A stretch of DNA of 64,000 nucleotides from contig CAZFWC010000001.1 in assembly GCA_964522515.1 (NCBI GenBank), positions 14,536 to 78,535 of the forward strand, given 5' to 3'. The stretch's first letter is position 1; every line of letters begins with the position of its first letter. The position numbers were made by a program, and so were the translations under genes. Source of the DNA: an uncultured Gammaproteobacteria bacterium. Its GTDB lineage: Bacteria > Patescibacteriota > Patescibacteriia > UBA2196. The notes under the pieces were generated by a model that saw nothing but the letters and a program-made list of their open reading frames with translations, had not been told where the DNA came from and made no database searches. Positions 44,473 to 50,503 of this stretch are shown here, one piece after another.

Positions 44473-44886
44473 TTAAATTGTTGCTAATTCTTGTTTTAAA
44501 AAATCTAAAGTTTGTGTTTGTTTTTTAGTTTGCTTTCCAGGAATTTTTTTAATAGCTTCTATTATTAATAAAATAACTTCTTTTAATTTATTTCTGTCTT
44601 TAATAACTCCACTTTCTATTAATTCCTGTAGTTTATTTAATTTTTTGTCAAGATAATCTTTTGTCACAATTTCGCCACTTAAACCAGCTGAAAAGTTGTT
44701 AAATTCTTCTTTAAAAGTATCCTTGGTCACTGTTACTTCTTTTAAGTCTTCTATTTTTTTATCCATTCTTTTTTCTAAACTTTCTAAATCATCTTTAGTT
44801 GCTAAAACAGGAAACAAAACTTCTTCAGCAAATTGTCCCAAAATTTCTAAAGTTAATGGTTTTTGTAATTCTTTTTTGTTTGACAT
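44473..44886 (-). CDS. hypothetical helical/coiled-coil protein between tuf and rpsJ
   Basis: intact 137-aa ORF in a normally gene-free junction; no family recognised. Confidence 0.45.
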   Translation of the reverse strand: MSNKKELQKPLTLEILGQFAEEVLFPVLATKDDLESLEKRMDKKIEDLKEVTVTKDTFKEEFNNFSAGLSGEIVTKDYLDKKLNKLQELIESGVIKDRNKLKEVILLIIEAIKKIPGKQTKKQTQTLDFLKQELATI

Positions 44887-46199: not shown

Positions 46200-46400
46200 T
46201 TTATTTATGATTTGCTAACAACCTTTCCCTAAAGGGAAAGTTTTCTCCAGTTGTTAGAGTTAATTTTTTTATTAATTAAATTTTAACAGATGCTAAAAAT
46301 AATGTCAAACAACAAACCCAAAGTTCAAAGTTAAAAGCTCAAAAAAATATCAAATACTAAATATTAAATTTTTAAATAAAATTTTTTCTAAAAGAACAAG

Positions 46401-46458
46401 GAGCCTGTCCGCCGTAGCTAGAGTTTTTTAGGATTGGGGGCGTAGGCGGATTAGGCGA
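46401..46458. repeat. GC-rich element short copy abutting stop of acidic protein gene
   Basis: GAGCCTGTCCGCCGTAGC...TTTTTTAGGATTGGGGGCGTAGGCGGATTAGGCGA. Confidence 0.8.
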
Positions 46459-47094
46459 TTAATAAACTGCTTCTTCCTCAAATTCATTTTCTATTTCTTC
46501 ATCATTATTTTCATCAATATCTTTTTCATCAAACGAAACATCAATAATTGGTTTTTCTTCTGTTCTAAAAAAATCTGAGGCTGTTACATCTGGTGGAGGT
46601 GGAATATCTTCGTATTTAATTGGTTCTGTTTCAGAATTGTCTTTTAAATTATCAAATTTTAAATCATTGTTTTTTATTTCATCTGCGTCCAAATCATATT
46701 TAGGTGCAGTAAAATCCTCTTCCTCTTCCTCATCTTCATTTTCATTTTCGTAATCATCTTCTTCCCAATTATTATTTTTAAAATCTTTTTTTTCATCTTC
46801 ATCTTCCCAAGGTCTGTAATCTAATTCAGGTTTATCAAATTCAGATTTAAATGGATCTTCAATTTCTAATTCGTCTTCTTGTTCTGGATGTTCTTGTTTC
46901 CAAATTGAAATATCACGATCAATTTGGTTTAACATTTCTTTTTCGTTTAAATTTTTAATATTGTCCGCATTTTCAATAATTTTTTCATAATCTGAAAAAG
47001 GCATTAAAACTAAATTTGTATTATTGTTTTCATCCACAATAATAATTTTGTCATTTGTTTTTTTAACTAAGTTGATGATTTTGTCTAGGTTCAT
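46459..47094 (-). CDS. highly acidic hypothetical protein (Asp/Glu-rich C-terminal two thirds)
   Basis: composition; no domain recognised; adjacent to TA pair and RM-like gene. Confidence 0.45.
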   Translation of the reverse strand: MNLDKIINLVKKTNDKIIIVDENNNTNLVLMPFSDYEKIIENADNIKNLNEKEMLNQIDRDISIWKQEHPEQEDELEIEDPFKSEFDKPELDYRPWEDEDEKKDFKNNNWEEDDYENENEDEEEEEDFTAPKYDLDADEIKNNDLKFDNLKDNSETEPIKYEDIPPPPDVTASDFFRTEEKPIIDVSFDEKDIDENNDEEIENEFEEEAVY

Positions 47095-47111
47095 AAAATT
47101 ATTTTATTATT

Positions 47112-47378
47112 TTAAAAATTTCGAATTTTTCTTAAAAGATCGTGTGGACCGACTTTTACTAAAAAACAAATATTATTAATAACTTTAAAAATAAATCTGT
47201 AATTTCTGGTTACTCTGCCTTCCCAGGTATTAACAAGACCTTTTATTTTTTTAATTTGCAAAGATGGATGTCTGAAATTAACAGTAAATAAAGCCAATTG
47301 TTTTTTAGTCTGAATTTTAATTTCATTAGGTAATTTTAAAAAATCTTTATCAAAACTTTTTGTGGTTTTAATTTCCAT
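47112..47378 (-). CDS. RelE/ParE-superfamily type II toxin candidate
   Basis: 88 aa; ...NYRFIFKVINNICFLVKVGPHD resembles the RelE/ParE C-terminal signature; overlaps upstream partner by 11 nt. Confidence 0.55.
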   Translation of the reverse strand: MEIKTTKSFDKDFLKLPNEIKIQTKKQLALFTVNFRHPSLQIKKIKGLVNTWEGRVTRNYRFIFKVINNICFLVKVGPHDLLRKIRNF

Positions 47379-47835
47379 ATTTTAAAGAATCTAAATAATT
47401 GATTAATTCATCAGCACTTTTATAAGATTGCGAAACTCTGCCTACTTTTATATCTCTTTCTGATTCTCGCATTCCTGTTTGCCATTCTTCTGTCCAAAAA
47501 TATTTTTGATCAGAATCAATTAATCCAGATTTACTAGCTGTTTCAATTTCTTCATTATTTAAACTTTTTGAATTTAAAATATTGTTATTAATAGTTTTAA
47601 TTTTATTTTTAGCTAATTTTAATACTCTTTGTTCCTGATCATTTAGTTTTAATCCTGTTTTTTTTAAAAGTGATAATTTGAATTTAGCTAATTTATTCAT
47701 TAATTTTTCTATTTCTTTAACTGTTTCCATTTCTATTGAAGTTTGAGAAGTTTGAATTGTGGTTGATTGTAAAGACATATTTTTTTTAATTTTATTTCCT
47801 GTGTTTATTTTATAAAAATATAAAAAATCTGTCAA
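47368..47835 (-). CDS. putative cognate antitoxin (start likely internal)
   Basis: upstream overlapping partner of toxin-like ORF; no confident family. Confidence 0.35.
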   Translation of the reverse strand: MTDFLYFYKINTGNKIKKNMSLQSTTIQTSQTSIEMETVKEIEKLMNKLAKFKLSLLKKTGLKLNDQEQRVLKLAKNKIKTINNNILNSKSLNNEEIETASKSGLIDSDQKYFWTEEWQTGMRESERDIKVGRVSQSYKSADELINYLDSLKYGN

Positions 47836-47978
47836 ATGCTTTATTCAACTAAGAACTAACAAATAAAATTTAACAAAATTTTATCTAACATTAGCCGTTT
47901 TAAAAAAGTCAAGTGCTAATAAAAAATAAATTAAATAATTAAAAAGGCTTTTTGATATTTTGCTTTTTATTTAGTTGA

Positions 47979-49490
47979 GTGTATAATAAAAATGAGGTGA
48001 TAATAATTAAAAATAAAATTATGGAAAACAGAACACTTTATTTTGGCGACAATTTAGAAATTTTAAAAGAAAAAATTCCTGATGAAGTTTTTGATTTGAT
48101 TTATCTTGATCCGCCTTTTAATTCCAATCGCAACTACAATGTCATTTTTAAAGAAGGACTGATGGATAGCGAAGCGCAAATTCAAGCATTTGAAGATTCT
48201 TGGCATTGGACACCAGAAACTAAAAAAACATTTGATTATTTGGTAAGAAAAACCAATGATGGAATTTCAAATTTAATGCAGGCTTTGGAAAAAATGATTG
48301 GCAATAATGATATGCTGGCGTATTTAACAATGATGACAGTGCGATTGATTGAATTGCATCGAGTTTTAAAAAAAACCGGCAGTTTATATTTACACTGCGA
48401 CCCAACAGCAAGTCATTATTTAAAACTCGTTTTGGATGTGATTTTTGGAAAAGATAAATTTAGAAATGAGATAGTGTGGTGGTATCACGATCCTTCTGGT
48501 ACAACTTTAAATAAGTTTAAAAGGAAGCATGATATAATATTCTTTTATACCAAATCCGATGATTATATTTTTAATGCAGATGCAGTTAGGACTCCTTATA
48601 CAGAAAGCACTTTAAAGCAAGGTGAAAGAGGGACAATTTCTTTTGGAAGACCAACCAAAACTCATCCTCTAGGGAGAGTATGTGAAGATGTTTGGGAAAT
48701 ACCAATAATTAATTCTATGTCTAAAGAACGGCTTGGCTATCCTACCCAAAAACCAGAAATGCTTTTGGAAAGAGTTATCAGGGCATCATCAAAAGAAGGT
48801 GATTTAATTTTAGATCCATTTTGTGGTTGTGGCACAACTGTTTCTGTGGCAGAAAGATTAGACAGAAAGTGGGTTGGTATTGATATTACAATGTTAGCTA
48901 TAAATCTTATTAAGAAAAGAATGAGAGAGCAGTTTGAAGATAAAAATATAAAAATAAATATTGATGGTTTGCCAAAAGATTTATCTGGTGCATTGGCTTT
49001 GGCAAAAAAGGATAGATTTGAATTTGAATATTGGGCATTAAGTTTAATTGATGCAATGCCAGCAAAAAGTAAAAGCAAAGAAAATATGCGAGGCGCTGAC
49101 AAAGGTATTGACGGCACACTAGCACCAATTACCGGCGTTAAAAATGGCAATATGCAATATGGCAGAATTTTAATTCAAGTAAAAAGTGGTGGTGTAAAAC
49201 GAAATGATATTGCCACACTCAAAGGAGATATTGAAAGAGAAAAAGCAATTGGTGGTGTTTTTGTCACTTTAGAAAAACCAAGTAAGCCAATGTTGGAAGA
49301 GGCAGTTTTATCCGGAGAATATACTGTTGAATTTTTTAAAGGTGAATTTCCTAAAGTACAAATTTTAACCATAGAAGAATTGTTGCACGGGAAAAAATTA
49401 AATTTGCCATTATGGTCAAAAGAATATCATAAAAAAGCAAAAAAAGTTGAAATTGAAAAAAATAAATTTCAGGTGGGATTGGGGGTGTAG
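47979..49490 (+). CDS. beta-class N6A/N4C DNA methyltransferase fused to C-terminal Mrr-like (PD-D/ExK) restriction-endonuclease domain; likely true start near 48021 (MENRTLYFGDNLEIL)
   Basis: motif IV DPPF (IYLDPPFNSN) before motif I (DPFCGCGTT); C-terminal DKGIDG...ILIQVK resembles Mrr catalytic core. Confidence 0.8.
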   Translation: MYNKNEVIIIKNKIMENRTLYFGDNLEILKEKIPDEVFDLIYLDPPFNSNRNYNVIFKEGLMDSEAQIQAFEDSWHWTPETKKTFDYLVRKTNDGISNLMQALEKMIGNNDMLAYLTMMTVRLIELHRVLKKTGSLYLHCDPTASHYLKLVLDVIFGKDKFRNEIVWWYHDPSGTTLNKFKRKHDIIFFYTKSDDYIFNADAVRTPYTESTLKQGERGTISFGRPTKTHPLGRVCEDVWEIPIINSMSKERLGYPTQKPEMLLERVIRASSKEGDLILDPFCGCGTTVSVAERLDRKWVGIDITMLAINLIKKRMREQFEDKNIKINIDGLPKDLSGALALAKKDRFEFEYWALSLIDAMPAKSKSKENMRGADKGIDGTLAPITGVKNGNMQYGRILIQVKSGGVKRNDIATLKGDIEREKAIGGVFVTLEKPSKPMLEEAVLSGEYTVEFFKGEFPKVQILTIEELLHGKKLNLPLWSKEYHKKAKKVEIEKNKFQVGLGV

Positions 49491-49508
49491 TAATTGTGGA
49501 TAACTCAA

Positions 49509-49537
49509 CTTGACAAATTTTTTTAAAAAATTTATAA
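49509..49537 (+). promoter_or_regulatory. sigma70-like promoter TTGACA-17-TATAAT immediately downstream of MTase stop
   Basis: canonical hexamers and spacing. Confidence 0.4.
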
Positions 49538-49548
49538 TTATGTTGAAA

Positions 49549-49590
49549 CCTATGCTCGTCTTCATTTTTAATTTGAGCATGGGTTTTTAA
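49549..49590 (+). terminator. hairpin + T-tract (terminator/attenuator-like)
   Basis: CCTATGCTC...GAGCATGGG + TTTTT. Confidence 0.45.
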
Positions 49591-49768
49591 ATTAAAAAGG
49601 CGACGATGCCGTTCGCCAATTTGCAAAAAATATATGCAGGATTTTTACAGAGGAGCGGACGCATTGTAAAATGCTATTTTTCCGCTTCTTTTTAATTTGT
49701 CAAAAGTCGTTTTAAATTAATATTTATTATTATGCCTGTATTAGGATAACAATAAATAAAATAAAAAT

Positions 49769-50080
49769 ATGGCTAAAAATAAAAAGCAAGGCACAAAGAT
49801 AGCAATTACATTTCCTGATAAAATTCAGGTGGATTTAGTTCCAGCAAATGACTTAAAACTTTATGAAAGATTTCAATGGTTGATTGTTTTATTGGCGCCA
49901 ATATCAGCTAGTTTTTTTACCGCATATTTTACAGATGTCAACAAGACGGATTCTTTATTGTGGAGTGCTATAATATTTGCGATAGTTTCAATAATTTTTA
50001 TATTTTTTGCTTTTAGTCATCGTAAAAAAATATTTAACGGAAAAATATTGCGAGAAAAATCATTAGATGATTTTAATTAA
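49769..50080 (+). CDS. hypothetical small membrane protein
   Basis: two hydrophobic helices; no SD; weak. Confidence 0.25.
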   Translation: MAKNKKQGTKIAITFPDKIQVDLVPANDLKLYERFQWLIVLLAPISASFFTAYFTDVNKTDSLLWSAIIFAIVSIIFIFFAFSHRKKIFNGKILREKSLDDFN

Positions 50081-50108
50081 AAAAATAATTAATTAAATTT
50101 AAAAATAT

Positions 50109-50345
50109 ATGCAAAAAAGAAAAGCAACTAAAACTCAAATTAAAAAAGAAAGAAATCCAAAAAAAGTTAAAAAAGTAATCAAACAAAAAGGATATCCGTC
50201 TGGTAAATTGCCAAAAACTAAAGTTTTACATCATCTTAAAACTGTTGCAATTGGCGGAAAAACAACAAAGAAAAATACAAGAATTGTTTCTGTTCGAAAA
50301 CATAAAAAGATTCATAAAAATAGAAACAAAAGAGGAAAAATTTAA
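50109..50345 (+). CDS. hypothetical very basic Lys-rich small protein
   Basis: 78 aa, about 35% Lys/Arg; no SD; weak. Confidence 0.25.
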   Translation: MQKRKATKTQIKKERNPKKVKKVIKQKGYPSGKLPKTKVLHHLKTVAIGGKTTKKNTRIVSVRKHKKIHKNRNKRGKI

Positions 50346-50503
50346 TTTAAAAACCTCAGAGTTTTATTTCTGGGTTTTTTATTTTTAAAAAATTTAAAAC
50401 ATAAGTCAAATGCAATTTTTCAGTATTTGTGGTTTGAACAAAATGGCTCCACCCAAGAGGGACGGAGCCAACTCTAAAAGCCGTTCGGGATGACAGCTGT
50501 GCT

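Follow-up and report, generated by a model that had tools for sequence, protein, structure and literature searches.

A beta-class DNA methyltransferase fused to an Mrr/FokI-type nuclease domain: a large and mobile family of candidate one-polypeptide restriction-modification enzymes

BtgZI (GCGATG 10/14), an enzyme of Type IIC/IIS, joins a methyltransferase at the N-terminus to a PD-QxK nuclease at the C-terminus and cleaves DNA outside its recognition site (PMC4081073). The Type IIG/IIL enzymes, among them MmeI, BpuSI and Eco57I, are built from an N-terminal nuclease, a methyltransferase of the gamma class (NPPY) and a recognition domain at the C-terminus (PMC4081073). In the Mrr/MspJI family of nucleases the PD-QxK site is catalytic (PMC12707154). 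In the 64,000-nucleotide stretch of DNA analysed here (the window), a single gene encodes a beta-class methyltransferase that continues into an Mrr/FokI-type nuclease domain. By analogy, BtgZI is the closest described precedent for this fusion, and we consider it moderately probable that the gene product is a Type IIC/IIS-like enzyme uniting restriction and modification in one polypeptide. The window gene is itself an ordinary member of a large family, the comparison of which provides most of the evidence presented below.

Gene start and domain architecture

The plus-strand reading frame ending at 49490 is uninterrupted, and the strings quoted in the initial annotation (IYLDPPFNSN, DPFCGCGT, GADKGIDG and LIQVKSG) were all recovered in a sequence check, whereas the start had to be revised. 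The mechanical start in the list of open reading frames is a GTG at 47979, giving 503 aa. The true start is almost certainly ATG 48021, because the equivalent of MxNRTLYFGDN, or a position a few residues upstream of it, is the start in 30 of 30 aligned homologues, because the gene call for a 99%-identical protein of 489 aa on a metagenome contig of the same population uses the ATG, and because GTG 47979 falls within promoter-like sequence. Read from ATG 48021, from which all residue numbers are counted, the coding sequence spans 48021..49490 (+) and specifies 489 aa plus the stop. The putative promoter region and possible ribosome-binding site upstream of the ATG (47960..48004, +) are predicted from consensus matches only: a promoter scan returned TTGAGT-18-GATAAT at 47975-48004, TGTATAAT can be read at 47980-47987, and GAGGTG at 47995-48000 is a candidate ribosome-binding site. 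On the other side of the gene, a perfect TTGACA-17-TATAAT promoter consensus (49510-49538, +) directly follows the stop codon, with a hairpin plus T-run within ~50 nt after it and a minus-strand terminator-like hairpin at 49618-49601; the stretch 49510-49620 could encode a very short transcript or a regulatory element. Rfam returned no RNA match in the flanks of the gene, this stretch included, and no tRNA genes were found near the fusion gene.

Motif content and profile matches identify the N-terminal 310 residues as a complete beta-class methyltransferase. The first part of the catalytic lobe (48021..48479, +; aa 1-153; PF01555) features motif IV, DPPF (48108-48119, +; aa 30-33), and a helical insert, and the AdoMet-binding lobe (48717..48953, +; aa 233-311) features YPTQKPE (48738-48758, +) and motif I, DPFCGCGT (48813-48836, +; FCGCGT, aa 267-272). 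Both motifs are intact, and their order (motif IV, recognition region, motif I) is that of the beta class, in agreement with the initial annotation and with the match to PF01555 (N6_N4_Mtase) at 2.1e-52 (178.7 bits against a cut-off of 26.7). DPPF is kept in 81-82 of 82 genomic relatives and in all 80 viral relatives, FCGCGT is kept in 82/82 genomic relatives and is invariant among viral relatives too, and within the CPR set the first methyltransferase lobe has a mean pairwise identity of 81%. The best solved match to the methyltransferase is M.MboIIA (1g60; 1e-26), and the alignment runs through the recognition region; M.RsrI and CcrM, also beta-class adenine enzymes, are among the closest solved methyltransferases as well. 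EcoP15I Mod matches the fusion protein at 3e-9 and the PADLOC Type III methyltransferase models match it at 4.7e-43, and NCBIfam (PRK11524) and PADLOC concur in a Type II/III-like methyltransferase. The methylated base is probably N6-adenine, since motif IV contains an Asp and the best matches (M.MboIIA, M.RsrI, CcrM and PRK11524) are adenine methyltransferases.

The C-terminal 140 residues, by profile and residue conservation, constitute an Mrr/FokI-type cleavage domain with D364-(Q/S)386-x-K388 intact and E407 near-invariant. This Mrr/FokI-like PD-(D/E)xK nuclease domain (48981..49400, +; aa 321-460) is followed by a basic C-terminal tail (49401..49487, +; aa 461-489) of low model confidence and weak conservation. 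PF04471 (Mrr_cat) scores 33.3 bits on the whole protein and 36.3 bits on the C-terminal piece alone (cut-off 21), and PF22722 (NA-iREase1) scores 35.4 and 37.9 bits, respectively (cut-off 27). The pairing of PF01555 with PF04471 proposed initially is thus found with both families above their curated cut-offs, and the fusion with an Mrr-like nuclease domain is real; the domain scores as a nuclease fold, and its D...QxK residues are present and conserved. No NACHT domain is present and the D...QxK residues are kept, so that the protein lacks both hallmarks of NA-iREase1, NACHT fusion and catalytic loss. Neither the sequence of the C-terminal domain nor a profile of it produced a meaningful match in the PDB; its solved relatives were obtained by fold comparison only, the nearest being AspBHI and MspJI. 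The AlphaFold2 model of the full-length protein is poor (pLDDT 60), too low for domain packing to be read from it.

Conservation within the active site bears most directly on whether this domain would cleave DNA, as we infer from its sequence. The residues in question lie in GADKGIDG (49092-49115, +; D360 and D364), LIQVKSG (49170-49190, +; Q386-V-K388) and DIEREKA (49227-49247, +; E407), and were counted in 387 distinct genomic, metagenomic and viral-contig sequences of the family, whose identity is otherwise 40-65%. D360 and K388 are present in 387/387 and D364 in 386/387 sequences, position 407, located on the helix after the QxK strand, is acidic in 381/387 (98%), and phage and plasmid copies keep the same catalytic residues. 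Such conservation is expected for a working metal-dependent site and therefore counts for an active nuclease. It is normally lost in inactivated folds, which argues against an alternative that we regard as unlikely, namely that the protein is an orphan or anti-restriction methyltransferase whose non-cutting C-terminal fold binds DNA or oligomerises, like the C-terminal domain of CcrM. Several features nevertheless point in the direction of an orphan methyltransferase: at position 386, 327 of the 387 sequences have Q and 60 have S, Ser thus occurring in ~15% of members and in 28-35% of some sets; the acidic E336 of helix 1 alternates with Gln among genomic and viral relatives; and the top Pfam match, NA-iREase1, is a family of 'inactive' REases. 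Both the Ser at the middle catalytic position and the name of the best-scoring Pfam model also weigh against the Type IIC/IIS reading. However, 58 of the 60 Ser386 variants retain the acidic residue at 407, and Ser386 with a downstream Glu may resemble a Cfr10I/NgoMIV-type site.

An exchangeable recognition cassette in a large, mobile family

Between NEIxW and YPTQKPE lies the hypervariable target-recognition region (48480..48716, +; aa 154-232), which in the alignment to 1g60 resembles the corresponding region of M.MboIIA. Its length ranges from 71 to 168 aa across the family and its mean identity, with insertions and deletions, is 35%, compared to 77-81% for the flanking methyltransferase lobes and 67% for the nuclease domain. 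Clustering at 50% identity separates at least 43 cassette types among 241 sequences. In 142 pairs of proteins the backbones are at least 85% identical and the cassettes unrelated; the window protein and family member P0002, for example, share 88% of the backbone and have cassettes that cannot be aligned. Another 25 pairs show the reverse, a similar cassette on divergent backbones, including one cassette shared at 82-88% identity by CPR proteins and a Nitrospirota protein with backbones only 54-55% identical. These comparisons of sequences identify the central recognition region as an exchangeable, shuffled cassette. Its variation is like that of HsdS, of the Type III mod alleles and of the MmeI family, where there is selection for changing specificity, and the shuffled pattern points to a conflict system and not to a housekeeping methyltransferase. 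For an orphan methyltransferase, the variable cassette would mean shifting methylation targets only.

The initial annotation considered the fusion unusual, a view that does not survive comparison with the databases. A protein search gave at least 8000 matches, the best 120 of which are uniform in their three-Pfam architecture and in length (~500 aa), and a search repeated with a profile built from diverse members gave the same picture. In a scan of one genome per GTDB species, at least 555 species carry the family; nearly all of the best 80 of these matches are full-length fusions, one (L070) being split into two ORFs. The distribution over phyla is patchy, and the hosts among the best 80 include CPR/Patescibacteria, Chloroflexota, Alphaproteobacteria (with cultured Sphingomonas and Novosphingobium), Aquificae, Acidobacteria, Planctomycetes, Nitrospirae, Thermoplasmatales and Bathyarchaeia. 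The nuclease domain searched alone is found in 1892 cluster representatives, and in those examined it is almost always fused to the same methyltransferase. Databases label family members 'site-specific DNA-methyltransferase' or 'restriction endonuclease', most often as a methyltransferase, and this predominance again favours the orphan methyltransferase. PADLOC matches methyltransferase models only, plus two weak PDC-S02 matches at ~8e-4, and none of its models spans the fusion. A search of the full-text literature, with REBASE outside its scope, found no paper on the fusion family, and we know of no assayed member, which counts against the Type IIC/IIS reading. The candidate HVO_A0006 (PMC4389544) proved to be unrelated, a fragment of an N-terminal Type IIG nuclease.

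The fusion gene is solitary and mobile. It is carried by eight plasmids, including Mesorhizobium pMLa, by 28 sequenced temperate phages (Streptomyces Likavirus gp47-51, Mycobacterium phage Amgine gp37 and Marinitoga MPV1_55) and by at least 437 IMG/VR viral contigs. Its commonest neighbours on viral contigs are a tyrosine integrase (14 loci, at a median distance of 337 bp), a large serine recombinase (8 loci), an S24 CI/LexA-type repressor (8 loci) and an HTH_3 Cro/CI-like protein (6 loci). The viral setting of the gene is the lysogeny module, which is the usual seat of prophage defence genes. Lone methyltransferases are usual on phages and plasmids, and the abundance of the family there would suit an orphan methyltransferase, and phage carriage as such does not single out the Type IIC/IIS reading, phage-borne orphan methyltransferases being common; the placement of the phage copies in the lysogeny module, and not among replication or late genes, argues against an orphan enzyme. 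Duplicated copies also occur: one Dehalococcoidia chromosome has two fusion copies (L020 and L045), and at locus L052 a second copy lies ~4.4 kb away on the opposite strand. On the Cellulosimicrobium plasmid pTL2A (L095, 2583-3530), a separately annotated 'restriction endonuclease' gene sits directly upstream of the family member.

The fusA-tuf insertion and the neighbours of the gene

In the window, the fusion gene and two small plus-strand ORFs sit in a ~4.3 kb insertion between fusA and tuf. The insertion (~46200-50500) splits a minus-strand rpsL-rpsG-fusA / tuf-rpsJ run, is surrounded by a long minus-strand run of ribosomal and translation genes, and contains the only plus-strand genes from ~10.4 kb to the end of the window. 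A near-identical metagenome contig stops on the upstream side, 71 bp short of the methyltransferase start, suggesting that the assembly broke at the island edge. Three small minus-strand genes adjoin the methyltransferase at 46459-47835: the product of one, 211 aa long, combines a weak Phd/YefM antitoxin N-terminus (5e-6, below the cut-off) with a long tail that is extremely acidic, that of another, 88 aa long, is faintly similar to ParE/RelE, and the remaining one is an overlapping ORF of 155 aa to which no function was assigned. Downstream, a very basic 78-aa ORF (50109-50345, +) has residues arranged as HH..GG..N..H..H and weakly matches the colicin/pyocin DNase profile at its HNH end (E 0.013). 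The HNH-like ORF, a membrane ORF of 103 aa and the toxin-antitoxin-like genes were considered as parts of the system and rejected, as they adjoin no other family member. A further ORF of 137 aa between rpsJ and tuf (44473-44886, -) has a coiled-coil look from its sequence and no significant family match.

No conserved neighbour or partner gene was found in 82 non-redundant genomic loci or in 79 viral loci, bearing out the earlier observation that no separate REase partner lies nearby; the neighbours that repeat in the 82 genomic loci, as shown by clustering, are only generic ABC ATPases and response regulators. Among the CPR relatives the gene context differs each time and consists of housekeeping genes, often with toxin-antitoxin modules alongside. 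These modules, together with the behaviour of the gene as a mobile, selfish cassette and the modification-dependent nature of AspBHI and MspJI, the nearest solved relatives of the domain, would fit an active nuclease with a non-classical logic: a modification-dependent cutter, an abortive-infection or addiction toxin checked by the methyltransferase, or a site-specific nickase. We consider such a logic improbable. MspJI and AspBHI read modification with a separate SRA-like domain (PMC12707154), whereas in searches with Pfam, NCBIfam and PADLOC the fusion protein has no modified-base reader (winged helix or SRA), the methyltransferase being its only other domain. Cutting the product of its own methyltransferase would moreover be suicidal, and the shuffling of the cassette is a better fit to a restriction-modification logic with shared specificity. 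It is very improbable that the protein is a Type III Mod-like subunit dependent on a motor or nuclease partner from another part of the genome, since, despite its matches to PADLOC Type III methyltransferase models and EcoP15I Mod and a central variable recognition region laid out as in Mod alleles, no Res-like or helicase gene recurs near the 161 loci (82 genomic, 79 viral) or in the window, and the protein has a nuclease domain of its own.

GAAGA, the M.MboIIA site, is not avoided in the window, which counts against the Type IIC/IIS reading as weak evidence, given that GAAGA may not be the site of this enzyme. ACGT is nearly missing from the 64 kb, with 1 palindromic site (35578) against ~67 expected (observed/expected 0.01), and GGCC (0.24), CATG (0.27) and TCGA (0.30) are strongly avoided in the window too. 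A contig of the same species (L096) has 0 ACGT against 22 expected, in counts of both strands, and ACGT avoidance is not seen in other genomes carrying the family. The scarcity of these four sequences suggests strong pressure on the lineage from 4-bp cutters.

Proposed function and relation to known systems

In the one-polypeptide restriction-modification enzyme that we propose, the methyltransferase and its cassette would bind a short, likely asymmetric site and methylate it at adenine with AdoMet, so that host DNA would be marked and protected. At an unmethylated site in incoming DNA, the tethered, sequence-blind nuclease would cut at a distance, and cleavage of both strands would require two nuclease domains to come together, as in FokI, MmeI or BtgZI. 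Most beta-class methyltransferases act as dimers, and a methyltransferase dimer would favour the pairing of the nucleases. Pairing of nuclease domains has been proposed for FokI and the Type IIC enzymes (PMC4081073). A swap of the cassette would retarget methylation and cutting at once, which would allow new specificities to arise without self-killing.

The initial annotation had proposed a self-contained system that could be Type IIG-like or modification-dependent. A self-contained restriction-modification enzyme is indeed the best reading of the sequence; 'Type IIG-like' is imprecise, because Type IIG enzymes combine an N-terminal nuclease with a gamma-class methyltransferase, and the modification-dependent option lacks support because no modification-reading domain is present.

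Should the nuclease be active, a common protein labelled simply 'DNA methyltransferase' would amount to an entire defence system encoded by one 1.5 kb gene, the restriction capacity of CPR bacteria, Chloroflexota, archaea and prophages would have to be recounted, and the family would be a new variant or architecture among single-chain restriction-modification enzymes. A dead nuclease would instead make the family a clear example of methyltransferases that have taken over a restriction fold as an accessory domain. We tentatively suggest that the family may represent a very large group of minimal restriction-modification enzymes encoded by one gene, combining a beta-class methyltransferase, an internal cassette and a C-terminal Mrr/FokI-type cutter, which could be a main innate defence of genome-reduced CPR bacteria and which temperate phages and plasmids may trade as lysogeny-module cassettes. 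If this is true, at least 43 cassette types (in 241 sequences) on one scaffold would be a source of Type IIS-like specificities, attractive for the discovery or design of enzymes that cleave beyond their recognition site.

The Type ISP enzymes (LlaGI/LlaBIII), ~1500 aa long, combine an N-terminal nuclease with a gamma-class methyltransferase and a helicase-like motor driven by ATP; unlike these, the fusion protein has no motor. Type III Mod, M.MboIIA and M.RsrI have the same methyltransferase core and motif order, and the central variable region of Mod alleles resembles that of the fusion protein, but they are separate methyltransferases with a separately encoded nuclease (Res, R.MboII), none of them fused, and the Res helicase-nuclease gene that adjoins mod in Type III systems is absent beside the fusion gene at the 161 loci and in the window. 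The Type IV enzymes Mrr, MspJI and AspBHI, as well as AF1548, recognise modified bases through a winged-helix or SRA reader and lack a methyltransferase, whereas the partner domain in the fusion protein writes the mark instead of reading it. The Type IIG/IIL enzymes likewise place methylation and cleavage domains in one chain, use one recognition module for both and diversify via this module, MmeI needing no separate methyltransferase; the fusion protein agrees with Type IIG in being a single chain and departs from Type IIG/IIL in its reversed order, with the nuclease at the C-terminus, its beta-class methyltransferase and a recognition region that lies inside the methyltransferase. With BtgZI the fusion protein shares, by published description, the domain order and the QxK motif (Gln for Glu), although the methyltransferase of BtgZI is described as alpha-class and that of the fusion protein is beta-class, with motif IV before motif I. 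The precedent of BtgZI shows that such a domain order with a PD-QxK site can make a working restriction enzyme.
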